DNA from: a virus | Taxonomy: Duplodnaviria > Caudoviricetes | IMG/VR virus record: IMGVR_UViG_2920580016_000003 | Coordinates: 12,918-76,917 of that record | Strand: one strand, 5' to 3' | DNA length: 64,000 nt | The notes under the pieces: generated by a model | The model's database searches: none | The model's input: only the letters and a program-made list of their open reading frames with translations | Told to the model about the DNA's origin: nothing | Translations under genes and position numbers: made by a program | Part shown: positions 1-64,000 of the stretch, one piece after another | Position numbering within the stretch: the first letter of the stretch is position 1 | How the letters are laid out: each line of letters opens with the position of its first letter

Positions 1-180
1 TGGCACCCCACCGGCAGCCACGGCCAACGGATGCTCGCCCGCTACCAGCAGCTCACCAGCCTCCGGCCGCCGCTCAGCATCGCCCGCATCGCGTTCGAAC
101 TCGGCGTGTCCGAACGGCAAGTCCAACGCTACGCATCCGCGACACGAGCCACCGGCGCCATCTCGGAGGTGGCGGCTTGA
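1..180 (+). CDS. HTH DNA-binding protein, 5' partial
   Basis: Frame 1 open from base 1 to TGA at 178-180; ...LSIARIAFELGVSERQVQRY is HTH-like. Confidence 0.6.
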   Translation, partial: WHPTGSHGQRMLARYQQLTSLRPPLSIARIAFELGVSERQVQRYASATRATGAISEVAA

Positions 181-644
181 GCGGACGACCCCGGCCCATC
201 ATCTGCCTCGACTGCGAACAGCGCGGCTTCCACGGCGGCCGCGGCCTATGCAACGCCTGCTACAGCCACCACACCCGGATGGGCACGCTGCACAAGTGGC
301 CGACCGTGCGCGGCAACACCGCCTGGCAAAACAGCCACCTCCTCGAACCACTACCGCCGCCCCACCCAGAAGAGCCGGAGCCGGCTCACCACAGCGGCGA
401 CACCACCTGGGAGGCGCGCAGCGCATGCCGAGGCGCCGACGGCGAAATCTGGTTCCCCATTTCCGAGACCGGCGACAATCCGCAGGTCAAAGTCGCCAGA
501 CGCATCTGCCGCGGCTGCCCCGTCCGCGAAGCCTGCCTCAACTACGCGCTCACCACCCGGCAGGCGCACGGCATCTGGGGCGGCCTCACCTCGCCAGAGC
601 GGCGCCAACTCGAACTCCGCCAAGCCGAAAGGGCAACGGCATGA
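177..644 (+). CDS. whiB: WhiB-family transcription factor with extra N-terminal Cys-rich domain
   Basis: WEARSAC...ICRGCPVREAC...GIWGGLTSPERR; N-terminal CLDC...GLCNACY. Confidence 0.9.
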   Translation: MSGRPRPIICLDCEQRGFHGGRGLCNACYSHHTRMGTLHKWPTVRGNTAWQNSHLLEPLPPPHPEEPEPAHHSGDTTWEARSACRGADGEIWFPISETGDNPQVKVARRICRGCPVREACLNYALTTRQAHGIWGGLTSPERRQLELRQAERATA

Positions 645-997
645 CCACCACCACGACCTACGACCTGTGGCAGCACGTCACCACCGCACTCGACTGGCTG
701 GACGCCGCCAACGGCCGCAGCGAGCACGCGACCACCATGCAAATCCTGAAGATCACAGAGGAGGCTGGTGAGGTGGCCGCCGCCTACATCGGCATGACCG
801 GCCAGAACCCGCGCAAGGGCGTCACCCACACCCGCGAGGACGTCGCGGGGGAGTTGTGCGACGTCGTCATCACCGCACTCGTCGCACTCGCCGCCATCAC
901 CGGCAGCACCGCCGACGCCCAGGCGGCACTCGACCGGCACCTCGCCCGCCGCAGACCCCGATTGGCCGCCCTCCTCGCCGAAGGAGTCACCGCGTGA
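641..997 (+). CDS. MazG-like nucleotide pyrophosphohydrolase
   Basis: ATG at 641 overlapping whiB stop; KITEEAGEVAAAYIG...GELCDVVITALVAL (EExxE...ExxD pattern). Confidence 0.85.
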   Translation: MTTTTTYDLWQHVTTALDWLDAANGRSEHATTMQILKITEEAGEVAAAYIGMTGQNPRKGVTHTREDVAGELCDVVITALVALAAITGSTADAQAALDRHLARRRPRLAALLAEGVTA

Positions 998-1245
998 ACA
1001 CCGCGACCACCGATATCGCCGCGACCCGCACCGGGTGGCGGGCATGGATGAGCTGGATCCGCCCCTGGTACATCGGCGCCGTCATCGGCGGCGACATCGA
1101 GGGCCACATCTACCCCGACTGCGAACGCCTCCTGCGCATCGAATCCGAGCCGCGGGAAGGCGCCGGCTGGCTCGACCCCGCACAGGGCCCTGTCTGCGAC
1201 CCGTGCAAGGCGCGCCACAACGTCGGAGAGGAGCGGCCCGCATGA
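994..1245 (+). CDS. Hypothetical phage protein
   Basis: GTG overlapping upstream TGA; coupled to the next gene. Confidence 0.6.
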   Translation: MNTATTDIAATRTGWRAWMSWIRPWYIGAVIGGDIEGHIYPDCERLLRIESEPREGAGWLDPAQGPVCDPCKARHNVGEERPA

Positions 1246-2339
1246 AAATCTCTGTGGAACCCAGCCTGTTCGCCGACCTCGTAGCCCGCGCCGGGCACCA
1301 CACATCCGGCCCCATCGAACCCGTTCTCGCCGGGCTGCTCCTCGAAGCCGACGGCGCCACCATGACGGTGTCGGCGTTCAACCGCGAATCCTCGTTCCGC
1401 GCCACCATGCCGGCCGAAGTCGCCGAACCTGGGAAGACACTGCTGCCCGGCCGCCTCCTAGCCGACGCCGCCAAAGGGTTGGCGAAGCGCCACGACTTCC
1501 TGCAGATGGCGTCCACCACAGCCGAGACGACGATCACCTGCGGCAGCGCGGTGATGACGATCCGGGCGCTACCCGCCGACGACTTCCCAGCACTGCCCCA
1601 GCCAGCCGCCGCCGTCGGCACGGTGGACGCCGCGGATCTGCGCGACGCCGTTTCCCAGGTGGCGCCCGCCTGCAAACCGGAAAAACCGGTGAAGCCGGAG
1701 CACGCCGTCGTGCGGATGGACATCGACGGCGACGAGATCACGTGGGTGGGTGCAGACAACTATCGGATGGCCACCCGTATCACGCCGTGGAACCCCGGCA
1801 CCCCGGACGCCCGGCTGGCGGCGCATGTGCCAGTGCGCGCCTTCCGCGACATGGTGAAGGACTTCGGCAAAGGCTCGGTGACGCTCGGCGTGAGCGACAC
1901 CCTCGTCTCTCTCGCCAGCGCTGAGCAGACGGTGACGATCGGCCAGTATCAGATCGACGAATACACCGACTACAAGCCGCGCCTCGCCAAACCCCTCCCC
2001 ACCACCGTCACAGTGGAGACGGAGGCGCTGCTCGAGGCCGTGAAACGCGTCGTGCTGTTCGCGGAAAACCAGGACGTCACCCTCGACATCGGGCCAGACG
2101 AAATCAGCGTCCACGCCGGCGACATCGCAGGCGTCGGCCGCGGCGCCGACACCGTGCCATGCGAAGTGGGCGGCGACACGATGACGCTCCGCTTCCAGCC
2201 GCCATTCCTCATCGACGGACTCGAAGGCGTCCACACGGAAAAGACCGTGATCGGCATGACGGCGCCCGGCCGCTACATCCTCATCTCATCCACCGACCAA
2301 GCGTTCAAGTATCTAGCCGTGCCGTTGAGAGCGCGATGA
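1242..2339 (+). CDS. dnaN: DNA polymerase III beta sliding clamp
   Basis: MKISVEP..., PVLAGLLLEA, VAEPGKTLLPGRLLAD, DDFPALP, ADNYRMA, RFQPPFLIDGL, YLAVPLR; ~365 aa. Confidence 0.9.
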   Translation: MKISVEPSLFADLVARAGHHTSGPIEPVLAGLLLEADGATMTVSAFNRESSFRATMPAEVAEPGKTLLPGRLLADAAKGLAKRHDFLQMASTTAETTITCGSAVMTIRALPADDFPALPQPAAAVGTVDAADLRDAVSQVAPACKPEKPVKPEHAVVRMDIDGDEITWVGADNYRMATRITPWNPGTPDARLAAHVPVRAFRDMVKDFGKGSVTLGVSDTLVSLASAEQTVTIGQYQIDEYTDYKPRLAKPLPTTVTVETEALLEAVKRVVLFAENQDVTLDIGPDEISVHAGDIAGVGRGADTVPCEVGGDTMTLRFQPPFLIDGLEGVHTEKTVIGMTAPGRYILISSTDQAFKYLAVPLRAR

Positions 2340-5410: not shown

Positions 5411-5422
5411 GCGGGGACACCG

Positions 5423-5779: not shown

Positions 5780-8329
5780 GTGAGCGCCCTCCGCGAATCC
5801 GCGCGCGCAGCCCTCACCGCAGGGCTGTGCATCATCCCCGCCGCGGCCAACGGCACCAAACAGCCCTGGCCCGACGGTCCCCGCTGGAAGACCTACGAAA
5901 CCCAGCAGCCCACCAGCGAACAGATCGAGCGCTGGTTCGCCAACGGCCGCTACGACGGGTTCGGCATCGTCTGCGGACGCATCTCCGGCAACCTCGAAAT
6001 GCTCGAATTCGAAGGGCGCGCCGTCACCGAAGGGCTCGTCGCCGAAGCCGCCGAAATCGCCGAAGCATCAGGGCTCGGCGACCTCTGGCGGACCGTGTTC
6101 AACGGCTACCGCGAAACCACACCGTCCGGCGGCATCCACCTGCTCTACCGGGTCGCCGGACCGGTCGCCGGCAACGTCAAACTCGCCGAACGCCCCTCCA
6201 CACCCGACGAATTCACCGCCTACAAGCAGCGCGAACAAGCCAAAATCGACGCCATCAAGGACCCTGCCGCCCGGGCGCGGCGGCAGCGCGGCCTCGACAA
6301 CATCACCCGCTGCGAGCAGGTGCCGCAAACACTCATCGAAACCCGCGGCGAAGGCGGATTCGTCATCATCGCCCCCTCCGCGGGCCGCACCCACCCCAGC
6401 GGGCGAGGCTGGACGCTCGAGGCCGGCGGGTACATGAGCATCCCGCTCATCTCCCCTGAAGACCGCGACGCCCTCCACCACCTGACCGGCGCACTCAACC
6501 AGATGCCGCCCGAAGAGGAGGAGATCAGCCAGCAGGTTGCGCCCCGCCGCCCCGCAACCGACCGGGTCAACGGATCAGATGGGCTACGGCCCGGCGACGA
6601 CTACAACCAGCGCGCCACCTGGGATGACACCCTTATCGACCGGCTCGGCTGGACGAAGGTCTACTGGCGGGGCGGCACCACCTACTGGCGGCGGGCCGGC
6701 AAAGACCGCGGCGTCTCCGCGACCACCGGCCGCACCGGCGCCGACAACTTGTACGTTTTCTCCACGAGCACGATCTTCGAGCCGCGCAAGCCGTACAGCA
6801 AGTTCGCCGCGTACACGCTCGTCACCGAAGGCGCTACCAGCCAGGCCAGCTTCAGCGCCGCGGCGAAATCGCTACGCGCCGAAGGCTACGGCAGCCCTCT
6901 CACCGACCGGGCACCCCGGCCCGCCCCCGCCGCCGTCGAGATGAGCGTCGACGACCTGCCGCCGCATCCCGCCGACGACCCCGCAACCGAGCCCCACGAC
7001 GATGGATGGGAGGCGCCGCCAGCGCGCCGCCGCGGACTCCTCCCCGACGACTTCTGGGACGCACGCCCCACCCTCCGCCACATCCGGCAAGCAGCCCACG
7101 CCCGCGCCCGCTCCGGCGACATCGTCCTCGGCGGCATGCTCGCCCGCCTCTCCAGCCTCCTGCCGCCCGAACTCCGCGCAGACACCGGCGTCGGCTCACC
7201 CGCCAGCATGAACATGTTCGTCATCCTGCTCGGCGCCTCCGGCTCCGGAAAGAGCTCCGCTGCGTGGATCCCCCGCAAACTCCTGCCCTGCCCGCCCCGC
7301 ATCGACTTCCTCGACGAACTCCCGCTCGGATCCGGCGAAGGCATCGCCGAGGCATACATGGGCGAGCAGCAGGTCGAAACCGACGAGGTGTACCGGAGCG
7401 GCCCCCGCAAAGGCGAACGCAAAACCGAGACCGTGCGTATGCAGGTGCGGCACAACGCCCTCTTCTACGCCGACGAAGGCGAATCCCTCACCAAGCAGCT
7501 GTTCGGCAGGCTGGGCGCCACCGTCGGCGAATCACTGCGCCGCGCGTGGACCGGCGGCACCATCGGCCAGTTCAACGGTCACAAGGTCAACACCCGGGTC
7601 ATCGAATCCGGCACCTACTCGCTGGGCATGGTCGTCGGTTTTCAGCCCGAGACCGCGCTGCCCCTCCTCGAGGACGCGCCCGCCGGTACGCCGCAACGGT
7701 TTCTGTGGTGTTCCTCCACCGACCCGTCCATACCCGAGGACGTCGTCGAAGAGCCCGGCCCACTCGACCTCGAGCTGATCCGGCGCGGCTTCGGCATCGA
7801 CCCCAAGATTTCGTTCGCGACGCCGCTGCTGCGGCAGATCAGGGCCGAGGACCGCGCCCGGGCGACCGGCGAACTCACGCTGCCGCCGCTCGACTCGCAC
7901 AAGCCGCTCATGCTCGTCAAGCTCAGCGTGCTGCTCGCCATCCTCGACAACCGGCTCGACGTCACAGCCGAGGACTGGCAGCTCGCCGAGCAAATGTGGG
8001 CGACGTCGTGCGAACTGCGGGACGCGCTGCTCGAGCATGCCGCGCGGCAGGCGGCCGAGGAGCACGAGAAGCGCACCAAGCTGCACATCGACCGGGAGCT
8101 TCGGGCGCACACGGCGAAGGCGAACTCTGACCGCAACGTCGAGCGGGTCGCCCGGCGTGCCGCCAAGAGGGTACACGAGGCCGAAGGCATGACGCGGGGC
8201 GCGCTCGCGAAGGCGATCGCCTACCGCGACCGTGATCTGTTGCCTGCGGCGCTGAATCTTGCTGAGGCGCTGGGGTGGATTTCCTGCGACGGCGACCAGG
8301 TGTCGCCGGGAGATGCGAGGCCGTCATGA
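5780..8329 (+). CDS. Bifunctional primase-polymerase fused to P-loop helicase-like domain
   Basis: Prim-Pol motifs GFGIVCGRISGNLEMLEFE, TPSGGIHLLYR, IETRGEGGFVIIAPS; Walker A GASGSGKS, Walker B FYADEGE. Confidence 0.88.
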   Translation: MSALRESARAALTAGLCIIPAAANGTKQPWPDGPRWKTYETQQPTSEQIERWFANGRYDGFGIVCGRISGNLEMLEFEGRAVTEGLVAEAAEIAEASGLGDLWRTVFNGYRETTPSGGIHLLYRVAGPVAGNVKLAERPSTPDEFTAYKQREQAKIDAIKDPAARARRQRGLDNITRCEQVPQTLIETRGEGGFVIIAPSAGRTHPSGRGWTLEAGGYMSIPLISPEDRDALHHLTGALNQMPPEEEEISQQVAPRRPATDRVNGSDGLRPGDDYNQRATWDDTLIDRLGWTKVYWRGGTTYWRRAGKDRGVSATTGRTGADNLYVFSTSTIFEPRKPYSKFAAYTLVTEGATSQASFSAAAKSLRAEGYGSPLTDRAPRPAPAAVEMSVDDLPPHPADDPATEPHDDGWEAPPARRRGLLPDDFWDARPTLRHIRQAAHARARSGDIVLGGMLARLSSLLPPELRADTGVGSPASMNMFVILLGASGSGKSSAAWIPRKLLPCPPRIDFLDELPLGSGEGIAEAYMGEQQVETDEVYRSGPRKGERKTETVRMQVRHNALFYADEGESLTKQLFGRLGATVGESLRRAWTGGTIGQFNGHKVNTRVIESGTYSLGMVVGFQPETALPLLEDAPAGTPQRFLWCSSTDPSIPEDVVEEPGPLDLELIRRGFGIDPKISFATPLLRQIRAEDRARATGELTLPPLDSHKPLMLVKLSVLLAILDNRLDVTAEDWQLAEQMWATSCELRDALLEHAARQAAEEHEKRTKLHIDRELRAHTAKANSDRNVERVARRAAKRVHEAEGMTRGALAKAIAYRDRDLLPAALNLAEALGWISCDGDQVSPGDARPS

Positions 8330-8343
8330 TGTCCGTTTTGTCG

Positions 8344-26977: not shown

Positions 26978-26992
26978 CCGGGGAGGCCGCCG

Positions 26993-50594: not shown

Positions 50595-50866
50595 TGCTGA
50601 CCATCACACGCACCCGGACCCACACTTTTATCGAGTTCGCGAACCCGTTCCTGGTGTGCGAAGGATGCGGCCAGCCAGTCACCCGGATGCACCGCCACGA
50701 GCGGTGCGGCTGCAACGACCCAGAGGTGGATCGCAACCCGTGCTGCGGATCGTACGGCGAGCGCAGCACATGCCCATCGTGGGGACCTGTGGACGGTTGT
50801 ACATGCGTGGCATCCCTCGGCTACATCCCCCACGGGCCTGCGGGAACCTCGGCGGTGAAGAAATGA
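50591..50866 (+). CDS. Cys-rich hypothetical protein
   Basis: CEGC, CGC, CCG, CTC; coupled on both sides. Confidence 0.55.
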   Translation: MMLTITRTRTHTFIEFANPFLVCEGCGQPVTRMHRHERCGCNDPEVDRNPCCGSYGERSTCPSWGPVDGCTCVASLGYIPHGPAGTSAVKK

Positions 50867-51636
50867 CGGCGGCGAAGATGCTGGCCGCGGGCCGCGCCGA
50901 CCTCGGCCTGTCCGGCAGGCCGAACCACATCACCCGCGACTACGCTGCCCGGCACGGCAAAGCGTTTCTTGAGGCGCCGTGGTGCAACATGGCGATCACG
51001 TATTGGGCGCGCAAGTCCGGCAACGCCGCCGCCGTCCTTCCGGCCGGAGACCGGGCGTATACGCCGTGGCACGCCGACGACGGACGCGACCGCGGCCTGT
51101 GGTACGCCGGCACCGTCGAGAACCTGAAGAAGCATGCCCGTCCGGGCGCGATCGTGTTCTTCGACTGGGCCGGCACCAACACGATCGCCGCGATCGACCA
51201 CGTGGGCGTCATTGAAGACGTCCTTGACGACGGCCGGGTTATCACGATCGAAGGCAACACCGGCGACGCGTGCAAGCGCCGCGTCAGGTCAGCAACGCAC
51301 ATCGCCGGGTTCTGGAACCCGCCCTACAAGCCCAGCACCAAGCCGCCTGCCGCGCCGGCAGCGTCGACCGTGGAGGACCTCGTGAAGAAGCTGCCCATGC
51401 TGGCGAAGGGCGCCAACAACTACGACGTAAAAACGGTCCGCGCCTGCTTGTTTGCCCGCGGCGGCCTCGACCCGGCCCACTACGGCGGCACGGACGGGCT
51501 GCAGGAGTGGCTCGAGCGGACCGACTTCGACGCCGCCCTCGACTCGGACGTGAAGGCGTTTCAACGGTCGAAGAAGCTTGAGGTTGACGGGATCGTCGGG
51601 CCTCGCACGTGGGCTGCGCTGCTGCGCGTGAAGTAG
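50863..51636 (+). CDS. Endolysin: CHAP domain plus peptidoglycan-binding domain
   Basis: APWCNMAITY, PGAIVFFDW, IDHVGVIE, TIEGNT; C-terminal VKAFQRSKKLEVDGIVGPRTW. Confidence 0.92.
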   Translation: MTAAKMLAAGRADLGLSGRPNHITRDYAARHGKAFLEAPWCNMAITYWARKSGNAAAVLPAGDRAYTPWHADDGRDRGLWYAGTVENLKKHARPGAIVFFDWAGTNTIAAIDHVGVIEDVLDDGRVITIEGNTGDACKRRVRSATHIAGFWNPPYKPSTKPPAAPAASTVEDLVKKLPMLAKGANNYDVKTVRACLFARGGLDPAHYGGTDGLQEWLERTDFDAALDSDVKAFQRSKKLEVDGIVGPRTWAALLRVK

Positions 51637-51836: not shown

Positions 51837-52391
51837 ATGCGCACCAGATTCGTGGCCGCCCTGGCGGCCCTCCTCATCGGCGCAGGCCTCGCCACGCCAT
51901 CCTCCGCCGCCGCTGATGTGCCCGGCCTGGAGATCGTCCAGATCGGCTACAACGCCTACGGCGCCGACCAGCCGTGGAACCGCAACCAGGAATTCATCGA
52001 CATCAAGAACACCTCCACCGAGCCCGTCGACGTCAAGGGCCTGCGCGTGGAGGACGCGTGGGCGCACGGCCGCGGCTCGGGCGCCGGCCAGTGCAACAAC
52101 TACACGCTCACCTCGCTGCCGGGCGTCGTCGAGGCCGACGGCAAACTGCTGCTGTCCGCCGGCCACACGATCCGCGTCTACGTCGGCTCCGGAACCGCCG
52201 CGGTGTTCGGCGACGGCCAGATGCACGCCGTCTACATGAACCACAACGTGGCATGCGGGTATCGCGGACACTTCCTCAACAACGGCGCACAGCGCGACAA
52301 GGGCGCGCCGTGGGACACCGTCTGGATCACCCTCGGCTCGGCATCCGAGTCCAAGAGCTACAACTTCTCCCGCGGCTACACCGCCCACTAG
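51837..52391 (+). CDS. Secreted lamin-tail-domain protein
   Basis: Signal peptide (MRTRFVAALAALL...AAA); NQEFIDIKNTS, LSAGHTIRVYVGSG, NNGAQRD; AAAGGAG RBS. Confidence 0.75.
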   Translation: MRTRFVAALAALLIGAGLATPSSAAADVPGLEIVQIGYNAYGADQPWNRNQEFIDIKNTSTEPVDVKGLRVEDAWAHGRGSGAGQCNNYTLTSLPGVVEADGKLLLSAGHTIRVYVGSGTAAVFGDGQMHAVYMNHNVACGYRGHFLNNGAQRDKGAPWDTVWITLGSASESKSYNFSRGYTAH

Positions 52392-52925: not shown

Positions 52926-52926
52926 G

Positions 52927-53504: not shown

Positions 53505-53960
53505 CTACTGGCAGTTGGTCCAGTCGCCGGCGCTGCCCCACGAGCAGGTATCGATCTTCTTCAGGTCTGAGCCTCGGTGGATGCTGGCCGTGTCGCCGTC
53601 GTTGTTCCACACGTACTGCCTGCGGTTCCAGTACACCGTCGACGTGCCGTCCTCTCCGCTGCCGCTGCGGACCGTGACCGTTTTGCCCGGCTTGAGTGTG
53701 AACGGGCCGAACCGGTACTTGTAACCGGTCTCGTCCCGCAACACCCAGCGCTCCAACTGGATCGTCTTCCTCGTTGTGTTCTTCAGCACCACGTACTCGG
53801 CGTTGAGGGAGGAGTTGGAGCGCCGGTCCGCGCCGGGGCTGTCGTAGTACACCTTCACGATCTGAACCGCCGGCGCGGCGGCCTGAGCGGGTGCGGCGGC
53901 CAGTGTGGACGCGAGCAGGGCCGTCCCGGCGGCAGCGGCGGGAGCGAGACGTCTGAACAC
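53505..53960 (-). CDS. Secreted lamin-tail-domain protein (second copy)
   Basis: AGGAG RBS, GTG 53960; signal peptide; LNAEYVVLKN, LKPGKTVTVRSGSG, VWNNDGDTA. Confidence 0.88.
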   Translation of the reverse strand: MFRRLAPAAAAGTALLASTLAAAPAQAAAPAVQIVKVYYDSPGADRRSNSSLNAEYVVLKNTTRKTIQLERWVLRDETGYKYRFGPFTLKPGKTVTVRSGSGEDGTSTVYWNRRQYVWNNDGDTASIHRGSDLKKIDTCSWGSAGDWTNCQ

Positions 53961-54875: not shown

Positions 54876-55072
54876 GGTGATCTAGATGGTGGGTTTGATA
54901 GCGCATACTGCAGGCACTCTGCCTGCACTTCGCAGGATCGGCACACCCGCTTGGCCACCTTCGGCGAGGCGCCCTTCTCCGGGAAGAACACCTCCGGGTC
55001 CGTCTGGGAGCAAAGGCCAGCGTCCAGCCACGACAGCGGGCGGTGGTCAGTGGCCAGGTCGACGTCCGCCAC
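54812..55072 (-). pseudogene. WhiB-like gene with degenerate C-terminus
   Basis: WLDAGLCSQTDPEVFFPEKGAS...VCRSCEVQAEC intact; GxWGG motif replaced by GVWRRR-stop after an insertion. Confidence 0.7.
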
Positions 55073-55331
55073 GGCCGACCTCGTCTCTGCGGATGAACTG
55101 AGCGGGCCGGGCGCCGGCCAAGCGCACCACGCCGACGATCACAAGGATCGCGAGAGCCGTGACCATGACGCCGACCGCGATCAGGAGCACGGTCAGGAGC
55201 GGGTTTGCGTCGGCGCCGGTTCTTCCGACGAGCGCCGTGAGGATCACACCGCCGCAATAGCCAGCGGGGATCCGATACAGGCTGTTCACTGTGATCTCCC
55301 TTCCTGGGGGTGCCGTGGTGGTGGACGTCAA
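55047..55331 (-). CDS. Membrane protein
   Basis: Two hydrophobic segments. Confidence 0.6.
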   Translation of the reverse strand: MTSTTTAPPGREITVNSLYRIPAGYCGGVILTALVGRTGADANPLLTVLLIAVGVMVTALAILVIVGVVRLAGARPAQFIRRDEVGRGGRRPGH

Positions 55332-56782
55332 CGGTTCAGGGCGTACAGGCCATGGCCGACGCGGGCGATCTCCTCGTCGTTGGCGAGCGCGACCAGCGTG
55401 TTACGGACCGAGCCGATCCGAACCTCGCGGCCGCCGTCCTGGTTGACGACGTCGAGGATCTCCTCGGCCGTCAGCGCGTCCTCGGCGGCGGCCAGGGCAG
55501 TCACGACGCGGTCCTCCAGGCGTTTCTTCTTCCTCCCGCCGCGGCTAGCAGAGTCGCCGTCCGCCGACTGCGTCCGCTGCTCCTTCTCGGCGTACTCGTC
55601 GCGCAACGCCTGGCACAGCGCGGCCATGGCGGCAGGGTCGTGGCGGGCGGCGTACGCCTCGCCAGCGGCCTCCCACGACGCTTCCTCCAGCCGGGCGGGC
55701 TCTCCGGGGCCGTACAGGGCGAGAATCTCCGGGTCGAGGCCGGGCAGCGGCTCGATAGAGCCGATCCGCCAATGCCGCATCAGACTGGTCGGGGTCAAGC
55801 TCGTCAGCAGGTAGGCCATGCCCTGCGTGTCGCAGAAGTCGTCATCGTCGTCGTACGCGTCGAACTGGCTGCGCAGCTCAGGCTGCTTGAGCTGCTTGGG
55901 GATCGGCATGAGCTGCGTGCCCGGCTCCAGCAGCCCGTCCTTGGCCAGCTGCTGCATGACGGTGGACGTCCAGCGCAGCAGCGTGACCTCGCCCTCCTTG
56001 AACATGGCGCGCAGCGTGTCGCTGCCGCCGAGCTCTTCCAGGTGGGAGGCTTGGGCGTCCAGCTCAGCGCCGACGCCGAGCGAACCGCCGGCACGGCTCA
56101 ACTCCCGCAGCAGATAGGCCGCTTCGTCCCGGTAAGGAGCGCCCCGCTCCAGCGCACGGTTGGCCTCGTCCAGGCGCACCGACATGAGCGGGTCGGGGTC
56201 GCCGATCAGGAACGTGTTGCGCCCCATCTTCCAGTAGCGGGGCTGCCGGGCGAGCGAGGCGACCGCGACTGCCGACCGCAGCATGAGGATGACCTCCTCC
56301 TGCGTGGTGGCGAACCAGTCGACGTTTCCCTCGGCCTCGGGCGCGGACTGGCCACCTTTCAGGTCGCCGTACCAGGTGACGATGCCGTTGCGCTTCTCGC
56401 ACGCCATCACGTACTGCACGATCCGGGACTTGCCGGCGCCGGTGGTACCGAACACGAGCGCCCGCTGGGCTCTGCCGGTCCGCTTATCGAAAAGCCTGCG
56501 CCGGGCCGGGCGCCCGTTGTGGTGGCGGCCGACCACGATCCGGCCATGCCGGTCCATCAGCATGTCGGCGGGGGAGGGCGGCGGCATGACCGCGAGCGGG
56601 TTGGCCGGGTAGACGGTGACGATGGCGCGGCGCCCGTGCACCTCGACGACGACCCGGCCAGGGTCGTCTTCCACGCCTAGCGCCGAGCACAGCGCCTCGT
56701 GGTCGTACTTGACGACCTGGCCGGGCGGCGCTTCCAGCATCAGCTCGACGATCTCGCCGTCGGGGATAGCGACCGCGCTCAT
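55328..56782 (-). CDS. TraB/FtsK-like DNA translocase ATPase with C-terminal winged helix
   Basis: Walker A VFGTTGAGKS, Walker B VRLDEAN, RAGGSLGVG; C-terminal LTAEEIL...GSVRNTLVAL. Confidence 0.85.
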   Translation of the reverse strand: MSAVAIPDGEIVELMLEAPPGQVVKYDHEALCSALGVEDDPGRVVVEVHGRRAIVTVYPANPLAVMPPPSPADMLMDRHGRIVVGRHHNGRPARRRLFDKRTGRAQRALVFGTTGAGKSRIVQYVMACEKRNGIVTWYGDLKGGQSAPEAEGNVDWFATTQEEVILMLRSAVAVASLARQPRYWKMGRNTFLIGDPDPLMSVRLDEANRALERGAPYRDEAAYLLRELSRAGGSLGVGAELDAQASHLEELGGSDTLRAMFKEGEVTLLRWTSTVMQQLAKDGLLEPGTQLMPIPKQLKQPELRSQFDAYDDDDDFCDTQGMAYLLTSLTPTSLMRHWRIGSIEPLPGLDPEILALYGPGEPARLEEASWEAAGEAYAARHDPAAMAALCQALRDEYAEKEQRTQSADGDSASRGGRKKKRLEDRVVTALAAAEDALTAEEILDVVNQDGGREVRIGSVRNTLVALANDEEIARVGHGLYALNR

Positions 56783-56785
56783 GTT

Positions 56786-57652
56786 TCAGCCCTCCTCGTC
56801 TATGCGGTCGGCGGGCCGGCCGGTGCGCACGCTGGTCAGCACGGTCCCGGGCATGGCGTCCGGGGCGATCCGGTTGGCCCACACCGCGGCCGGTGTGACG
56901 TCCTCGTCCGGCCGGCCGACCTGCAGCAGCCGATAGGCGGAGCCACGGCCGGGCACCGGCCCGATGGCTATCAGGTCTTCGGGGACGTCCATCAGCGCCG
57001 ACAGTCGCATGATCGAGATGTCCGGGACCGGCTGGCCGGGGACGGCGGAGCGGACCACCGCCCGCACGGCTGTCTCGCCGGTCCGCTCGATGTCCTCTAG
57101 CAGTGTGCCGGGGGCGGCACCGCCGTCGATGGCGACCTTCTGCGCCCACCAGCGCGCTGCCGGATGGTCACACACCTCGGCTGGCAGCGGCGCGACAGTG
57201 GTTGACGGGACGCGCGGCGGCGGGGACACCATACGGCGGGCGACGTCGGCCGGGCGCGCCACCCACGTTCCCACCGTCCAGGTGGCCAGCGCCGCTGCCT
57301 CGAGCGGGTGGATACCGGGCACCCACTGTTCGGCGACCAGCAGACAGGCGAGGCTGCCGCCAGGCATCAGGTACAGCACGGTGGCGGTCGCCTTCTGGTG
57401 GCCATCAGGCTTCCACAGCCGCAGCGTGGCCAGCCCGCCCAGAGTGAGCGCCGCGTCGGCCAGCAGGGACACGCCGGTCCAGTGGCCGGTGAACAGACCC
57501 GCCGCAGCGGACGCAGCGCCGGCGAGCGTGGCCACGCGCCCCACAGCGCTGCGGACGACCTGCACGCGGCGTTGCATCTTGGTCAGCGCGTGCCACTGCG
57601 GCACTGTCACCTCCACGGGCGACAGTGCTGGCGGGTTCACAGGCCGGGCCAC
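56786..57652 (-). CDS. Membrane N-terminal half of TraB-like translocase
   Basis: Four TM segments; in frame with the ATPase ORF across TGA-AAC-ATG. Confidence 0.65.
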   Translation of the reverse strand: MARPVNPPALSPVEVTVPQWHALTKMQRRVQVVRSAVGRVATLAGAASAAAGLFTGHWTGVSLLADAALTLGGLATLRLWKPDGHQKATATVLYLMPGGSLACLLVAEQWVPGIHPLEAAALATWTVGTWVARPADVARRMVSPPPRVPSTTVAPLPAEVCDHPAARWWAQKVAIDGGAAPGTLLEDIERTGETAVRAVVRSAVPGQPVPDISIMRLSALMDVPEDLIAIGPVPGRGSAYRLLQVGRPDEDVTPAAVWANRIAPDAMPGTVLTSVRTGRPADRIDEEG

Positions 57653-57667
57653 AATCGTCTCCTTCGG

Positions 57668-58099
57668 TCAGCGGTTGCTGTAGAACTCGGCCTCAGCCAT
57701 CGGCACAGGCATGTGGGTGGCGGCGTCGGCGACCGTCCCGTAGTCGCCCTCGTGGGCGTCGGCGGCCTGCTGGAACAGGGTCGACAGGTCCTCGGCCGCC
57801 TCCGCCATCGCCTCGGCCTCGTTCAGCACGCTCCGCATGACGGCCGCGGCCTGATGGTGCTCACCCACGGTGTCGCGGTCGACGGTCAGCGACGCCATCT
57901 GCTCTGCCAGCCGATCCACCGACGTCGAGCAGCCCTCGACGTAGCGGTAAGTGGAGCGGACCTGCTGGCTCAGCCCGCGCAACTTGATCCCGGCCATGGT
58001 GAGCTGGGCGATGACGATGGTGTAACGCACCGCCGTCTCCAACACGCCGCCGCTCGCCTCCACCGCGGCGCCCGTCTGGCGCCTCTCCAACTCGCTCAT
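57668..58099 (-). CDS. Transfer-region helical protein
   Basis: AGGAG RBS; ends VPMAEAEFYSNR, similar to actinomycete plasmid Tra accessory proteins. Confidence 0.6.
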   Translation of the reverse strand: MSELERRQTGAAVEASGGVLETAVRYTIVIAQLTMAGIKLRGLSQQVRSTYRYVEGCSTSVDRLAEQMASLTVDRDTVGEHHQAAAVMRSVLNEAEAMAEAAEDLSTLFQQAADAHEGDYGTVADAATHMPVPMAEAEFYSNR

Positions 58100-58111
58100 G
58101 AGCTCCTCCTG

Positions 58112-60040
58112 CTACTCGTCGTGGTATTCGCGCTCAGCGGGACGGGTGTGGCCGGCATCGCGGACCGCGTCGGCCAGAGGCTTGTGGCGGGCAGCGGCGT
58201 TCGCGCCGGCGATAGAGATGGCCTCGGAGGCGGCGGGCAATGTGTCGGCGATCGCCATGGCGCGGGCGCGCACGGTGGCGGTCTTGTCCATCAACCTGAC
58301 GACCATGCCTTCCAGCACGCCGGGCACCATCAGCTCGACGACCTTGGCGTGCAGGGATTCCAGCCGGGTGAGCAGCAACTCGCAGCCGTCCGCGGTGTGC
58401 CGGGCCGGGGCCACCCCGTCGAGAATCTCCTCCGCCATGTCGGCGTCGGCGTCGATCACGTCGTAGATGGTCAACTCTGCGTCGCGGTACTGCGTGCTGC
58501 GGACGGGCGCGCTCACGAAACGGGCTCCATTCGGGGTCGCTGCTGGTGTCGGCGAAGGGCCTGCGGGTAGCGCAGGGCGTCCTCCAGCGGGTGCTCCCGC
58601 CAAGACCAAGGGCTCGGGCGCCGGCTCTGGGGGATCGTCGACGCGCTCGCAGGACTCAACCCGCACGCTCCGGTCCGCCCCCGGCGGCGGGCGCATCCCC
58701 TCGAACCCTGGAGGAGGCGGGGGCGGCGTGCCGCCTGCTGTCGAGCTCCACGCGGTCGCGCCGGAGGCCTTGTGACGTCTGGTCCACCAGCGCTGCCGCG
58801 CGCCCCGATGCTTGCCGCGCTTGGGCCAGGTGAACCCGAAACTCATCCTGGAGCGCGGCTCGGGACGGGTTCTACGACGGCTCCAGCGCTTCAACCACCT
58901 GGCGCCGTGCTTCGCCGACTTGCGCACCCAGGACTTCCTGGAACGCCGACGCGGGCGCGCGGCCTCGCGTTCGGGGGCGACCCGGCGGTTCCAGCGTTTC
59001 CGCCCCTCGATCGCCTTGTCGCCACCGGGCCCGGGCCGCCGCTTGCTGGCCTTCCACCGCAGCCGGTCGTGCCGCGGCTTGCCCTTGTTGTCTGCCTTGC
59101 GCTTGCGGCCGCCGCCCGGGCGTCCGGATGTCCAGCCCTTCGGATCCTTGTCGCCGCCCTTGCCTCGGCGTTTGGGAGCCTTCCACCGCAGCTTGCCCGC
59201 AGGCTTCTTAGGAGCCTTCGGAGCCTTCGGGGAGTTCTTGTCGGCACCGCCCTTGGGCGTCTTCGGCGACTTGCCAGTGTCGGCGCCGCGGCGCTTCCGC
59301 CAGCCGAAACCGCCCTTGGCGGCGCCCTTCCGCCGCTTCTGCTTATCGCGCCCCCACGTCGTCTTGCCGCCCGGGCCAGCCTGGGGTGCATTGCCGCCCT
59401 TGCTGTCACGTCCCGGTCCTTTACGCGAACGATCCTGGCCGGCCCCGGGCCGATCGCCCCTGTCGCGCCGCTTACGGCCACCATCAGGGCGCGAACCCCT
59501 GCGGTCGCCGCCACCCGGGGAACGCAGAGACGACCTCTTGCCCCCCGATCCTCCCGAATCGGCGCCATTCGCTCTCCGAGCGCCGCTGGCGGCAGCCTTG
59601 GCCTGCGCCTTGTCGGCGTTGGCTCGAGCCTCATCAGCGAGCGCCTTCCGGCGGCGGGCCTGCTGCCACATGCCCTGCGCTGCCGCCACACCCAAAGCGG
59701 TGACCAGCGCTATCGCGACCGCGAGCGTGTCCCGCACGGTCGGATTGTCGGGATCCTCCGGCGCGGGCGGGACGAACCCGCCATCCTCGCCGCTGTCCTC
59801 GCCGGCGTCGGCCGGGGCCGGGACACCAGGCATCGTCAGGGCGAGCGGTGGCGCCATGTCCGCGACGCCGGGCAGCCGGGGCCAGACACCGGCCGGAGCG
59901 GACGGCGCGGCGCCCTCGGCGGGGCTGTCCGTCACGCCCGGGTCAGGGTCTGGTCTAGGGGCGTCGAAGGAGCCCGGCAGGAACACGCGAGGAAACTGTA
60001 CGACCGAGCCGCCCCCGTCCTTGTCGTCGCTGCCGCTCAC
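58112..60040 (-). CDS. Large transfer-region protein with Lys/Arg/Gly-rich disordered centre
   Basis: GAGGAGG RBS; TM-like segment; helical C-terminus ending RPAEREYHDE. Confidence 0.6.
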   Translation of the reverse strand: MSGSDDKDGGGSVVQFPRVFLPGSFDAPRPDPDPGVTDSPAEGAAPSAPAGVWPRLPGVADMAPPLALTMPGVPAPADAGEDSGEDGGFVPPAPEDPDNPTVRDTLAVAIALVTALGVAAAQGMWQQARRRKALADEARANADKAQAKAAASGARRANGADSGGSGGKRSSLRSPGGGDRRGSRPDGGRKRRDRGDRPGAGQDRSRKGPGRDSKGGNAPQAGPGGKTTWGRDKQKRRKGAAKGGFGWRKRRGADTGKSPKTPKGGADKNSPKAPKAPKKPAGKLRWKAPKRRGKGGDKDPKGWTSGRPGGGRKRKADNKGKPRHDRLRWKASKRRPGPGGDKAIEGRKRWNRRVAPEREAARPRRRSRKSWVRKSAKHGARWLKRWSRRRTRPEPRSRMSFGFTWPKRGKHRGARQRWWTRRHKASGATAWSSTAGGTPPPPPPGFEGMRPPPGADRSVRVESCERVDDPPEPAPEPLVLAGAPAGGRPALPAGPSPTPAATPNGARFVSAPVRSTQYRDAELTIYDVIDADADMAEEILDGVAPARHTADGCELLLTRLESLHAKVVELMVPGVLEGMVVRLMDKTATVRARAMAIADTLPAASEAISIAGANAAARHKPLADAVRDAGHTRPAEREYHDE

Positions 60041-60091
60041 GACCGCCTCCTCTCAAGGGTTGACAGACAGTGACCGAATGAGGGAACCTCT

Positions 60092-60140
60092 CTCGCGCGC
60101 GCGCCGCGCGTACGCGCGCCGCGCATTACGCGCGCGCGAG
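60092..60140. repeat. (CG)n nested palindrome
   Basis: CTCGCGCGCGCG (60092-60103) / CGCGCGCGCGAG (60129-60140) around CGCGCGTACGCGCG (60105-60118). Confidence 0.85.
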
Positions 60141-60173
60141 GCGCACTCGGCGCATGAACATGAAGATGCGCAG

Positions 60174-60440
60174 TCACGATCCGTGACCTCCATGCCAGCG
60201 TGCTTCGGACTCCTCCTGCTGGGCGGCCCACGTCGCGAGCAGCTCCGCCAGCTCATACATCGCCCGCGGGTTGCGCTGGCTGCGCCGCGCCCGCCGCGCG
60301 GCGGCCTTGGCCCGGTCGAAGCACAACTTCGCGAACTGGGCGTCATCCTTGACAGCCTGGGTGCGCTCATTCCAAGTTCTGGCGAGGTTCTGCAGCCGGC
60401 GCAGCGCCTCCGGAGTCAGCTTGTCGACCGTCCCGTTCAC
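60174..60440 (-). CDS. Hypothetical protein
   Basis: GAGGAG RBS; coupled to the upstream gene. Confidence 0.6.
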   Translation of the reverse strand: MNGTVDKLTPEALRRLQNLARTWNERTQAVKDDAQFAKLCFDRAKAAARRARRSQRNPRAMYELAELLATWAAQQEESEARWHGGHGS

Positions 60441-60913
60441 GCCGGCCGCTCCTCACGGATCAGGTCGAGGAACTCCCTGTCCGACTTCGCCGACGCTGGC
60501 CGCGCGCCTGCCCGCCTCGGCTGAGCTGGGCGTTTGGCCGGGTCAGGGCCGGGCGCGAGCGCCTGCTGCTTGTCCTGCGCGGCAGCCTGCCGCTTCGCGG
60601 GGATCTCGTGACGGTTCCTGCGATATCGGGCCTCCAGCCGGAACGTCAGTCTGGCCGCAGCCTCAAGGTGTTCCTGGATCTCGGCGAACGGGGCGGTAAC
60701 CCTCCAATGCCGCCACCACGCCTCAAACGAGCCGTATTCCGACGGCGGGTTCTCCGCCCACATGGCCTCAGCGTCACGCCGCATGTGAGCCACGAAGTCG
60801 GCATACTCCGACAGCGCCCGCCGCAGCTGGGCTGCGAACGCCTGCACCACCTCCGGGCGGTCCAGCATGTCCCCAGACCACTCCGGCCCGGACGAAGAAG
60901 TCCTACTCATCAT
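60437..60913 (-). CDS. TraA-like plasmid transfer protein
   Basis: AAGGAAGG RBS; RVTAPFAEIQEHLEAAARLTFRLEARYRR pattern; name is inference. Confidence 0.5.
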   Translation of the reverse strand: MMSRTSSSGPEWSGDMLDRPEVVQAFAAQLRRALSEYADFVAHMRRDAEAMWAENPPSEYGSFEAWWRHWRVTAPFAEIQEHLEAAARLTFRLEARYRRNRHEIPAKRQAAAQDKQQALAPGPDPAKRPAQPRRAGARPASAKSDREFLDLIREERPA

Positions 60914-61995
60914 CAATCCCTTCCTTCGAGCGCCTTCTTGACCTTGGTGGCGGTGCCGGTGCCGCACCCCAACGCTTTGCCGATCTTCTGGATGCCGGCG
61001 TCGGCGGGCAGCTTCCCGGCGGCGATCAAGGCGCGTGCCCGGTCCGTCAGAGCGTCGATATCGACCCTCGGACGGGGCGGCGGAGGGCTGTACCGGCGGC
61101 CAGCGTTTGCCCTGTACTCAAGGTGAGTACGGCCATCAGTACGGCCTGTACCGGAGGCCGCCGGGACAGGCAGCGCCTGCAGCACCGACCACAGCGCCGG
61201 CAGCACCCACACCGCGGTCACCGCCGCGACCGGACCAAGGCTGTGCACGATCAACGTCAGCAGATCGAAATCGACGTCGGGCGCGAACGCTGGCCAGCAG
61301 TTCAACACCAGCGTCAGAACGAGCAGCAGCGCCTCGGCGCGGAACAACTTCCGGCCGGGGCCGTTCTTGTCCTTGCGGTCGACGACCTGGCCGCGCATCG
61401 CGCTGTAGGCCTGCACCGCCACGGCGGCCAGCAGCGGCAGCGATAGGGCCGGCTCCACGCCGAACGCCGCCCACCAGGCGAACGTGTGCTCCTTCAGTTC
61501 CAGCGCCGTGGCCACCGAAGCCTGCACGCCGATACTCGACACCGCCAGGCCGATCGCGGCCGCCGCCATCACCATCACCGTGACAGTGCGGCGCACCTTG
61601 GCGTCGCGGTAGGCCAACGCGACCGGGTCCTGGGCGAGCTCGTGCAGCCGGGCGGCCTCGCTGACATCGCGGCGACGCTTGCGCACCTTGGGCGTGTCGA
61701 TCAGCAGAGGCGCGTCGTCGTCCTGCAACTCCAGGAGGCGGTGCGCCTCGGCGACCTCGGCGCGCAGCTTGCGGACGCGGCTGGTGTTGCCTTCGTCGTC
61801 GTCGAAGTCGAGCCCATACTCGGGTTCAGGCTCGTCCTCGATGTAGGACTCGTCGTCGACCTCGGAATCCTCGACATCGGGCTCGTGGGCGGCCGGCTCC
61901 GGGAGGCGGGAGGCGACATAGTCCTCGAGCGCGGCCAGGCCGCGCGCGACGTCATCCTCGGGCGGAGGATCGGGCGACGGGGTCGTGGTGTTCAT
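60913..61995 (-). CDS. Spd/DUF2637-like multi-TM spread/transfer protein with C-terminal HTH
   Basis: Four TM segments (WWAAFGVEPAL...), C-terminal IQKIGKALGCGTGTATKVK. Confidence 0.65.
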   Translation of the reverse strand: MNTTTPSPDPPPEDDVARGLAALEDYVASRLPEPAAHEPDVEDSEVDDESYIEDEPEPEYGLDFDDDEGNTSRVRKLRAEVAEAHRLLELQDDDAPLLIDTPKVRKRRRDVSEAARLHELAQDPVALAYRDAKVRRTVTVMVMAAAAIGLAVSSIGVQASVATALELKEHTFAWWAAFGVEPALSLPLLAAVAVQAYSAMRGQVVDRKDKNGPGRKLFRAEALLLVLTLVLNCWPAFAPDVDFDLLTLIVHSLGPVAAVTAVWVLPALWSVLQALPVPAASGTGRTDGRTHLEYRANAGRRYSPPPPRPRVDIDALTDRARALIAAGKLPADAGIQKIGKALGCGTGTATKVKKALEGRD

Positions 61996-62231
61996 CAGAC
62001 GGTCTCCGGGGTTCGGATCAGAGCCTGTAGGTGGGCGGTGGGCAGCGCCTGCGCCAGCAACTGCGCCGGGTGTGCCCCGGGCGCGGGCATCTGGTCGTGG
62101 GCGGTGAGCACGTGCCGCACGTGCACGAGCGGGTCAGGTTCGTCGCGCTCGGCCGCGGCGACGGCGGCGCGCGCGGCGGCCAACAGTTCGGCGTGCTCGG
62201 CGACGAGGAGCGCGGCCTGGGTCTGGTTCAT
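61995..62231 (-). CDS. Hypothetical protein
   Basis: LLAAARAAVAAAERDEPDPL; TGATG coupling. Confidence 0.6.
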   Translation of the reverse strand: MNQTQAALLVAEHAELLAAARAAVAAAERDEPDPLVHVRHVLTAHDQMPAPGAHPAQLLAQALPTAHLQALIRTPETV

Positions 62232-62944
62232 CAGAACCCTCCAGGCGGTGCGTCGAGGACAGTCACACCAGGCAGAAACACGGAGTTGACGTGCCAGAAT
62301 CGGCCTTCACGGTCGCTACGGAAGATCCGGCCGTATACCTGGTTGGGGTCGACCGCTACGCCCGCCTGGGTGCACAGACCCGGCAGCATCTTGAGCGCGA
62401 TGCCGTAGGCCGCCTCATACTCGGCGGTGAACCGGCCACTGGCCAGCGCCTTGTCAACGGTCTGCTCTCCGATGTCCGACTGCCGACGGAGGTCCACTCG
62501 GAACTCGTACACCTCGGCGGTGCTCTCGTCCGGCGTGGACATTGCCATGTGGGGGACGGGGCCCGACGGCGATGCCTTCCTGATGGTGCGGCGGCGCCGC
62601 CACTGCCACCAGCGCGGCCGGGGCTCGGCGAGTCGATCGACGGTGTCGGTGAGTTCGTGCACGGTCTCGGCGACCGAGCCGACCGCGGCAGCGGTGGAGT
62701 CGGCGAACTCGACGCCCTGGTTCACGGTCGCGGTCAGATTGTGGACCTCAGCGCCGAGGTCCTCCAGCCCGTTCTGCAGGGCCTGGCCGGCGGCGGACAC
62801 GTGGCCGGCCAGGTGCTGGATCGCGGCCGGCGTCTTGGCCAGCAGTTCCAGCGCGGTGGCGATCCGGGCGAGATCGGTGCGCATCGCCAGCATGGCCTGC
62901 GCGTCATCCTCGGGGTGGGGTGTGAAGAGTCGGTCGGCGGTCAT
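62231..62944 (-). CDS. Coiled-coil hypothetical protein
   Basis: GGAGGTG RBS, ATG 62944. Confidence 0.6.
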   Translation of the reverse strand: MTADRLFTPHPEDDAQAMLAMRTDLARIATALELLAKTPAAIQHLAGHVSAAGQALQNGLEDLGAEVHNLTATVNQGVEFADSTAAAVGSVAETVHELTDTVDRLAEPRPRWWQWRRRRTIRKASPSGPVPHMAMSTPDESTAEVYEFRVDLRRQSDIGEQTVDKALASGRFTAEYEAAYGIALKMLPGLCTQAGVAVDPNQVYGRIFRSDREGRFWHVNSVFLPGVTVLDAPPGGF

Positions 62945-63345
62945 GCGGTCACCTCCGCCAGCCAGCGGTCCAGTTCGGCGCGGGCGATCGGCCGCTGCCG
63001 GTTGAGCGGCACCATCCGGCACGTCTTCTCCAGGAACGCCTCGACAGCGTCCCGCTCGGCGTACAGTTCGCGCAGCCCGCCCCGGCACGGCACCGTGAGC
63101 GTGATGTAGTCCCGCACGGCGTGCGGCTTGACCAGCGGGAAACCGGACTCGCCGGTCGGCTTCTCCAGGCCGTCGATCAGCAGGTCGCGGTAGAGCACAA
63201 CCTCGTGGACGCCGTCGTGGTCGGGGATGACGATCTCGACCGCGAACGGGTCGTCGCTGCGGTAGACGATGGTCGCCGTGTACGGCTCGTCGCTGTGCCG
63301 GGCCGCGTTCCACAAAAGGATCGGCACGTTAAGGATCTTTCTCAT
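62941..63345 (-). CDS. SsgA-family sporulation/cell-division regulator
   Basis: TIVYRSDDPFAVEI, LYRDLLIDGL, VEAFLEKTCRMVP, ELDRWL. Confidence 0.8.
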   Translation of the reverse strand: MRKILNVPILLWNAARHSDEPYTATIVYRSDDPFAVEIVIPDHDGVHEVVLYRDLLIDGLEKPTGESGFPLVKPHAVRDYITLTVPCRGGLRELYAERDAVEAFLEKTCRMVPLNRQRPIARAELDRWLAEVTA

Positions 63346-63662
63346 GCGGTCACCGTCCCGGTGAGCGCGGTGGCGGGCGGGGTCATGCCGCGGCCCATCA
63401 GCGCGGTGGTGAGCATCGCCAACGCCCGATGCTCCAGGTCGTCCAGGGAGATCTCCTCCACGCGGACGCCGGTAGCGACGCTGGCGTAGACCGGCCGGCC
63501 GGGCTCCCAGCGGAGACCGATCTGCAGGCCAGGCAGCTCGAGATCCGTACCGATGCACATGCCGAAACCGGCGTCGTCGCCGAGGTGATCCGTACACCAC
63601 AGCTGATGCTCCGGCTCCGGCCAGCGCTGCGCGGGGATGCGAATGTCGGGGGTGTCGTGCAT
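63342..63662 (-). CDS. Hypothetical protein (WCxxH motif)
   Basis: GAAGGGA RBS, ATG 63662; HQLWCTDH...MC. Confidence 0.55.
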   Translation of the reverse strand: MHDTPDIRIPAQRWPEPEHQLWCTDHLGDDAGFGMCIGTDLELPGLQIGLRWEPGRPVYASVATGVRVEEISLDDLEHRALAMLTTALMGRGMTPPATALTGTVTA

Positions 63663-63772
63663 GATGATGGTTGTCCCTTCGCTCGTGCTGGTGGTCGGGA
63701 CATGCGGAAGCTGGCGACCTCGGTCTGGGCGGATGGGGGTCGCCTTTCGCATGTCAGGGGAGATCGCGCGCA

Positions 63773-64000
63773 TCAGACCGCGACCTCGTCAGGCTCGGCG
63801 CCCCACTTCGGCGCAGCCAGCAGCGCCTCCACGAACGCGCGAGGAACCTGCTTCTTGCTACGCACAGGAACGTGGGGGAACTCGCCAGCTTCGACAGCGC
63901 GGCGGACAGTGATGGGCGAGACGCCGAGAATCTCGGCAACCTCAGGGATGGGCAACGCCTGACGGCGATCCGGCGTGATCTCAACGCTCTTGCGGCTCAC
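63773..64000 (-). CDS. Excisionase-like HTH protein (start at window edge)
   Basis: ALPIPEVAEILGVSPITVRRAVEAGEFPHVPVRSKKQVP. Confidence 0.85.
   Translation of the reverse strand: MSRKSVEITPDRRQALPIPEVAEILGVSPITVRRAVEAGEFPHVPVRSKKQVPRAFVEALLAAPKWGAEPDEVAV

Follow-up and report, generated by a model that had tools for sequence, protein, structure and literature searches.

The viral DNA considered here, a stretch of 64,000 nucleotides (positions 12,918 to 76,917 of the IMG/VR record IMGVR_UViG_2920580016_000003; hereafter the window), carries a phage virion and lysis module that converges on an operon for conjugal transfer (tra). It probably forms the core of an 86.7-kb temperate siphophage integrated at a tRNA-Val(CAC) gene, a mosaic relative of the plasmid-phage PhiNon1; the element would move by two routes, in virions and by transfer of DNA between hyphae. 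That the phage genes and the tra operon belong to one element, as a reading made from the sequence alone had supposed, is well supported by the single 49-bp pair of attachment (att) sites that bounds them and by the recurrence of the linkage in relatives, at two tRNA sites and with non-orthologous Tra types. The element joins the actinomycete plasmid-phages of the PhiNon1/pZL12 kind as a larger member, equipped with a TraB module of the type found on the small Streptomyces plasmid pFP12. This kind is already known, and with pZL12 and PhiNon1 as precedents the novelty claimed in the sequence-only reading was overestimated.

Boundaries of the element and its integration site

The window corresponds to positions 1197641-1261640 of contig C1 (1.46 Mb) in a genome of 12.4 Mb (G000), assigned to the genus Nonomuraea from the source names of homologous proteins. 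Genes were called using a codon-usage model trained on the same genome, since the DNA has a G+C content of about 69%, and 20 kb were read on either side of the window (L001 on the left, L002 on the right). Coordinates preceded by w are relative to the window, negative values and values above 64000 lying outside it.

All of the window falls inside a single att-bounded element of 86.7 kb. The left site, attL (49 bp, w-13152..-13104, L001:6848-6896), is flanked by a host MreB paralogue on one side and by a cI-like repressor on the other, and the same 49 bp recur as attR (w73578-73626) inside tRNA-Val(CAC) (w73577-73651, L002:9577-9651, - strand), at its 3' end. The two copies form a perfect direct repeat (49/49 bp), the only significant one across 87 kb, and no internal att copy was detected within the element by the direct-repeat search. 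A hairpin that natively lies 3' of tRNA-Val in element-free genomes was found just outside attL, and the tRNA-Val site is empty in two genomes, G099 and G060. A tyrosine integrase of 413 aa (w72113-73354, L002:8113-9354, + strand) adjoins the tRNA. The 49-bp repeat encloses the phage and the tra genes together with one terminal integrase, and therefore a single att pair bounds both over 86.7 kb. Inspection of the flanks, proposed earlier as a check, accordingly returned one attL/attR pair (w-13152 and w73578). An integrase is indeed present beyond 64 kb, as a separate transfer element would have it, but its att partner lies at w-13152 and not near 54 kb, so that the claim of one element stands.

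Two other expectations of the sequence-only reading had to be given up. It took the window for a complete phage, but on the left the element continues with early genes over about 13 kb and with the cI-like helix-turn-helix (HTH) repressor (w-12916..-12491, L001:7084-7509, - strand, divergent from the early operon), and on the right it goes on through a GntR regulator, accessory genes spanning about 8 kb and the integrase up to attR. The order of the element is thus attL, the cI-like gene, about 41 kb of early and replication genes, the head, tail and lysis genes, the convergent tra operon, the accessory genes, Int and attR. In the circular form Int and cI would be adjacent across attP, and the tra block would lie between the lysis genes and int, which is the usual cargo slot of phages. 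A single control region comparable to lambda PL/PR, from which the early and tra operons would diverge, had also been envisaged; instead, cI forms one unit with the early genes and GntR another with the tra genes, and in the circle the two units are separated by about 8 kb, Int and attP.

The gene map confirmed that the virion and lysis module (28561-52787, + strand) converges on the transfer operon, which runs on the - strand from 63662 down to about 54890. The absence of a boundary between the two, also claimed before, was borne out: no tRNA was found in the 64-kb window, and the interval 52.8-64 kb contained no att site, integrase, rep gene, host block or direct repeat flanking the tra block. 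Scans for promoters, terminators and operators, run over the junction and the intergenic region between GntR and tra, turned up no signal beyond chance expectation. Two lamin-tail-domain (LTD) proteins flank the junction, one encoded at 51837-52391 (+ strand) and the other, with a signal-peptide-like N-terminus, at 53505-53960 (- strand). Both are conserved in relatives at 48-77% identity, the latter being kept there at the phage-tra junction.

The surrounding host locus has its own peculiarities. A host ssgB-like gene (SsgA family, w74103-74519) lies about 450 bp from the att repeat, the element thereby being integrated beside host ssgB while carrying an SsgA-like paralogue itself. Another att copy, the third, is degenerate (40 bp, 95% identical) and lies in inverted orientation at w91399-91438 (G000:C1:1289039-1289078), about 18 kb to the right of attR. 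Compared with G099, G060, G024 and G047, 17 kb of host DNA (w74103-90625), together with tRNA-Val and the prophage, have the opposite orientation in the interval from the MreB side to the far side, a rearrangement that may reflect an inversion between att sites.

The transfer operon and its plasmid ancestry

From its start, the operon encodes a protein of 106 aa, an SsgA-like protein (62941-63345, - strand, PF04686), and proteins of 237, 78, 360, 143 and 88 aa, followed by a 642-aa membrane protein, proteins of 143 and 276 aa, the 484-aa TraB-like ATPase (55328-56782, - strand), an 80-aa membrane protein and, as the last gene, a WhiB-like protein (54890-55030, - strand). The 106-aa, SsgA-like, 237-aa, 78-aa and 360-aa genes occupy 60913-63662, and the five genes at 56786-60868, including that of the 642-aa protein, follow the tra/spd order of the plasmids pFP12 and CP109021. 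Six consecutive genes (w55337-60910) are collinear with these two plasmids at 48-71% identity, and the plasmids likewise carry a GntR gene divergent from tra, as found here at w64121-64465 (L002:121-465, + strand). Comparison of gene order and identity thus shows the tra block to be plasmid-derived. The Prim-Pol, helicase, ParA and recombinase of the plasmids have no counterpart in the element. The block also looks functional, with tra open reading frames (ORFs) intact and the length of TraB conserved at 484 to 490 aa, and the TraB-like gene stands in an operon setting of the kil/kor type, with Spd genes and a GntR repressor. Of the TraB, Spd, SsgA and Xis genes that the sequence-only reading had recognised in the operon, the TraB-like and SsgA-like genes were recovered, whereas Xis had no profile match. 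Spd is represented by position only: the 360-aa gene takes the place of the DUF2637/Spd gene of the plasmids, and no DUF2637 match was found within the window.

The 484-aa protein matches proteins on 230 actinomycete plasmids, the best plasmid matches being 69% identical and residing on Streptomyces plasmids of 22-26 kb, where they are annotated as "transfer protein". Its Walker A motif, GTTGAGKS, is invariant among 21 homologues, as is the E of a putative Walker B motif, VRLDEA. Profile matches were weak (NF041214, E 1e-3; PHROG FtsK family, 4e-4), and PF01580 gave no match. Because of these weak TraB and FtsK profile matches, the protein was modelled with AlphaFold from the 21 homologues (pLDDT 75) and compared by Foldseek, which matched the model to the TcpA coupling protein, EccC and the FtsK motor (E ~1e-8, probability 1.0). 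The model further predicts a C-terminal winged helix at residues 422-482, with the order helix-helix-helix-strand-strand. Judged by this predicted fold and by its Walker A and putative Walker B motifs, the protein belongs to the FtsK/SpoIIIE-like ASCE ATPases.

The 642-aa membrane protein (58112-60040) contains a stretch of about 300 residues of low complexity, rich in Lys, Arg and Gly, between conserved ends, and scores low as coding sequence for an ORF this long. Possibly it is a Spd-type protein that binds DNA. Its ORF was rejected as a candidate for TraB, being a membrane protein with a basic low-complexity region and without a family match. Clustered 8-9-mers, CAAGGGCGG x4, were considered as clt and likewise rejected, as they lie inside this ORF and encode Lys-Gly-Gly repeats. 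An SsgA-like gene, of a family linked to cell division and sporulation, is conserved in the tra operon and occurs also in PhiNon1, L030, G048, G093, G109 and G089.

Relatives, mechanism and alternative explanations

Relatives were sought in 110 Nonomuraea species genomes. A separate search for related loci returned only four, all of them distant. The repeated linkage of TerL and TraB that the sequence-only reading had called for was recovered, within att-bounded elements in G047 and G026 and as tra genes beside homologous phage genes in G048, G093 and the metagenome contigs L030 and L031. In G047 (N. rhodomycinica), TerL and TraB are 86% and 72% identical to those described here, with the same spacing and orientation; the element measures 62.2 kb, is bounded by a 51-bp att pair at the same tRNA-Val, encodes an Int of 72% identity and matches in gene order from end to end. 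An exact empty site could not be matched for G047, as the DNA past the tRNA differs among species. The G026 element (TerL 81%, TraB 57% identical) spans 94.2 kb between copies of a 44-bp att repeat at tRNA-Ala(TGC), which lies on the early-gene side, and its tra operon still follows the lysis genes. An ORF of 566 aa beside this tRNA-Ala had no family match, and an integrase was not confirmed there. A third, imperfect att copy (39 bp, 95% identical; L011:6045-6083) occurs in G026 2.1 kb outside attL and was probably left behind by a previous occupant of tRNA-Ala.

In G048 and G093 the tra operon adjoins homologous tail, lysis and LTD genes, and the head module differs. The closest TraB relatives anywhere (85% and 83%) reside on L030 and L031 (62 kb and 34 kb), on which the entire tra operon converges on homologous lysis and tail-fibre genes. 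Across seven loci, six or more tra genes are intact and collinear at 57-85% identity. Three related prophages (G028, G080 and PhiNon1) have Tra of other types in this position: a canonical PF01580 Tra occupies the slot in G028 (TerL 84%), where a DUF2637 gene lies beside it, and in G080 (TerL 55%), and the PhiNon1 slot encodes a 642-aa Walker-A protein with a below-threshold PF01580 match, together with a DUF2637 protein. In a TraB tree (FastTree, without support values), most phage-borne copies fell into one Nonomuraea clade, sister to copies from Streptomyces plasmids. The G026 copy was placed elsewhere, and therefore more than one capture is indicated. Maintenance of the module by selection is supported by the collinear, intact genes, by the non-orthologous replacement of Tra within the slot and by the retention of a Kor-like regulator. 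The recurrent att-bounded architecture and the swapping of Tra types seem to be undescribed in the literature searched.

Under the proposed mechanism, Int would excise the whole circle, which the phage replication module would maintain or amplify and whose multimers a Xer-like system would resolve. The circle could then leave the cell packaged in virions after induction, or TraB could pump double-stranded DNA into a neighbouring hypha and the Spd proteins spread it through the compartments, with the GntR repressor governing the tra operon independently of the lytic cascade. Conjugation, plasmid replication and particle formation would be expected of this element by analogy with its relatives, and spread by both virions and hyphal transfer would follow from such a mechanism. 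More broadly, there may exist a Nonomuraea siphophage lineage in which a conjugation module is a regular part, with at least three non-orthologous Tra types in one slot, and which routinely spreads by virions and by virion-free passage of double-stranded DNA from hypha to hypha; this wider proposal is put forward tentatively, at somewhat under an even chance.

Several observations weigh against a dual-route plasmid-phage. TraB had no match among 50,697 records of isolated phages, and its matches to TraB profiles fall far under the curated cut-offs. A search for clt, the 8-bp repeats that the winged helix of TraB-type translocases recognises, revealed no array, the only clustered 8-mers being those encoding Lys-Gly-Gly, and no profile confirmed a Xis. 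No partition genes were identified, neither ParA nor ParB occurring among the scanned proteins, a set that took in only part of the small ORFs. The element, 86.7 kb long, exceeds PhiNon1 and the G047 element by 25-27 kb, and it is not assured that the whole of it fits one head. Finally, the prophages of G034, G098 and G027 (TerL ~55% identical) show no Tra nearby, and because of these the tra module is not universal among related prophages. As regards head capacity, the G026 element reaches 94 kb and its major capsid protein is 87% identical to that of this element. The protease/scaffold protein measures 566 aa here and 522 aa in G026, both large elements, vs 403 aa in G047, which is merely a hint, from three cases, that capsid size tracks genome size.

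Some of these points would also suit a temperate phage that has captured plasmid tra/spd genes as cargo. On this account the genes would not move the phage between mycelia; they would be inert or serve otherwise, for instance by spreading phage DNA over hyphal cross-walls after infection, excluding other elements or mobilising host DNA. The block occupies the usual cargo position from the lysis genes to int/att, clt was not found, some related phages lack Tra, and the Tra type differs between relatives in the manner of cargo genes. Against this, however, stand the six or more genes kept intact and collinear through the seven loci, the retained Kor-like GntR regulator and the precedent of pZL12 for real conjugal transfer, and the non-orthologous replacement of Tra in the same position speaks for selection acting on transfer itself. 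Such a cargo role is considered unlikely, though not negligible. It is hardly credible, by comparison, that two independent elements, an actinomycete integrative and conjugative element (AICE) or integrated plasmid and a prophage, lie adjacent or nested with boundaries of their own, now or in the past. The plasmid ancestry of the tra block, the position of the integrase on the tra side and the phage-ICE accretion tandems known in other phyla (PMC13651849) would agree with it, but 52.8-64 kb lacks an att copy, integrase or rep gene, the att partner of the integrase lies beyond the phage, and cI and Int would be neighbours across attP in the circle. In G026, moreover, the tRNA end is on the early-gene side and at another tRNA, yet the tra block adjoins the lysis genes.

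A decaying prophage, fixed in the chromosome, inherited vertically and immobile, might be suspected from the occupation of the same chromosomal site in G000, G047 and G024 and from the rearranged host locus. Yet the att repeats are perfect, the large genes are all intact, the site is empty in G099 and G060, and PhiNon1 is active. The element proteins, moreover, are mosaic and only 30-85% identical, compared with 63-99% for the flanking host genes, and therefore separate acquisitions are indicated. Decay is accordingly regarded as very unlikely, and a temperate plasmid-phage with one att pair and an integral transfer module remains the preferred reading.

As vehicles of gene flow, phages and conjugative elements are commonly considered apart. 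pZL12 illustrates that one Streptomyces replicon can be both, and PhiNon1 is an integrating, multi-copy relative from Nonomuraea. The present locus and its relatives suggest a recurrent, att-bounded design in a genus that makes glycopeptide antibiotics, and tra modules seem to have been exchanged with small plasmids. Should the dual route hold true, the host range and spread of these prophages would not be restricted by phage receptors, and TraB could also mobilise chromosomal DNA. The family offers a tractable system for asking why a phage would retain a conjugation apparatus and, should the conjugation module prove a regular part of the lineage, it would represent a missing link among AICEs, conjugative plasmids and phages of mycelial actinomycetes.

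Phage modules and comparison with known systems

The virion and lysis module begins with a small ORF and ends with a membrane protein gene, at 52787. It encodes, all on the + strand, TerL (28842-30374), the portal (30388-32445), the protease/scaffold protein (32630-34330), the major capsid protein (34737-35663), tail proteins, a tape measure protein of 1581 aa (39397-44142), minor tail proteins (45331-48246) and an endolysin (50863-51636), followed by the first of the two LTD proteins mentioned above. Two large ORFs lie upstream of the small ORF, at 25241-28561, and neither matched a phage family. One (578 aa, 25241-26977) has a weak GDSL-lipase match, and the other (522 aa) falls in a stretch of 75.6% G+C with a poor coding score. 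The 578-aa ORF was considered as TerL and rejected for want of a phage match, TerL being encoded at 28842-30374.

The early region encodes the sliding clamp predicted by the sequence-only reading (DnaN-like, 1242-2339, + strand), two DNA methylases and an 849-aa Prim-Pol fusion with an N-terminal Prim-Pol domain (5780-8329, + strand), a candidate replication protein. The Prim-Pol part of the Prim-Pol/helicase proposed earlier was thus upheld, whereas no profile confirmed the helicase part. A Xer-like tyrosine recombinase of 299 aa (16910-17809, + strand), likewise foreseen together with its site (16796-17809 in all), is directly preceded by a res/lox-like site (16796-16898) formed by a perfect inverted repeat (14 bp) whose arms are separated by a 6-bp spacer, and two extra copies of the inverted-repeat box lie 42 and 88 bp downstream. 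Recombinase and site could form a multimer-resolution system for a circular replicating form and, together with the Prim-Pol protein, fit a circular replicating stage. The iterons that the earlier reading took for an origin may correspond to a tandem array, TCCGGCCAT x4 (9 bp x4), at 13446-13481, intergenic after the gene at 12692-13405; the repeats themselves are real.

To the right of the window, the genes follow in the order GntR, an HTH-TPR regulator, a second small GntR-like gene, a methyltransferase, the integrase, tRNA-Val(CAC) and the host SsgA-family gene. The accessory region L002:704-3832 (w64704-67832) encodes the HTH-TPR regulator (phrog_10886) and a protein with a TRADD-N-associated two-helix transmembrane domain, which could represent defence or abortive-infection cargo.

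The closest described system is PhiNon1 of N. gerenzanensis ATCC 39727, a "self-replicating" plasmid-phage of 59,257 bp with a copy number of 17, detected in circular form as well as inserted at a 50-bp attB, which lies at the 3' end of tRNA-Val(CAC) near ssgB (D'Argenio et al. 2016; PMC5431353). It was described as "reminiscent of pZL12" and carries an ssgA-like gene, and tra genes are not mentioned in the main text (PMC5431353). PhiNon1 was located in G024 using a primer from that paper, with a 50-bp att pair at the same tRNA. The two elements share the genus, the attB at the 3' end of tRNA-Val(CAC) beside ssgB (49-50 bp), Int (49% identical), the cI-like repressor (54%), the ssgA-like gene in the operon head (44%), a Prim-Pol protein 75% identical over a 477-aa stretch, several early genes, tail-fibre and lysis genes, a methyltransferase, and a - strand operon past the lysis genes, which in PhiNon1 encodes a Walker-A ATPase and a DUF2637 protein. 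PhiNon1 differs in its size (~59 kb vs 86.7 kb), in head genes without detectable similarity and in a Tra candidate of another type, weakly FtsK-like, in place of the pFP12-type TraB. The phage-plasmid idea of the sequence-only reading is strengthened by PhiNon1, published as circular at 17 copies and as integrated; circular multi-copy DNA was demonstrated there, whereas the present element is, in this assembly, an integrated prophage with an ordinary Int and a tRNA att site.

The Streptomyces plasmid-phages pZL12/PhiZL12 and pSLE1 likewise combine virion genes, a GntR-controlled tra operon and a Tra ATPase in one replicon, and conjugal transfer of pZL12 is cited as requiring its tra genes (PMC3583192). 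The Tra of pSLE1 is 27% identical to this TraB over 305 residues, and the N-terminal half of its TerL is 44% identical. Hardly any other gene content is shared. pZL12 and pSLE1 are maintained as plasmids with ParAB, of which none was seen here among the scanned proteins in an element integrated at a tRNA, and in them the tra operon precedes the terminase and is read in its direction, in contrast to the convergent operon after the lysis genes described here. The small Streptomyces plasmids pFP12 (NC_023068) and CP109021 share TraB (69%), five collinear neighbours and the divergent GntR, but their Prim-Pol, helicase, ParA and serine recombinase have no homologue here. With AICEs such as pSAM2 the element shares a tyrosine integrase at a tRNA 3' end, and AICE Rep proteins include a Prim-Pol type (PMC3218068). 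It is, however, 4-8 times larger than these small plasmids and AICEs and has a complete virion; Int, Rep and Tra, compact in AICEs (~9-24 kb, without virion genes), are here spread over 86.7 kb together with a virion module. A prophage physically coupled to conjugation machinery, such that the phage integrase would excise the composite, is also seen in phage-ICE tandems (PMC13651849) and in the conjugative prophage Phi1207.3 (PMC4260502). Both were described as site-specific accretions in other phyla and explicitly not as hybrid elements. A tandem (Huang et al. 2026; PMC13651849) joins two elements at a shared site, each having its own integrase and att, whereas the junction described here contains neither, and the element combines one att pair and one terminal integrase with a single-protein, FtsK-type translocase of double-stranded DNA.

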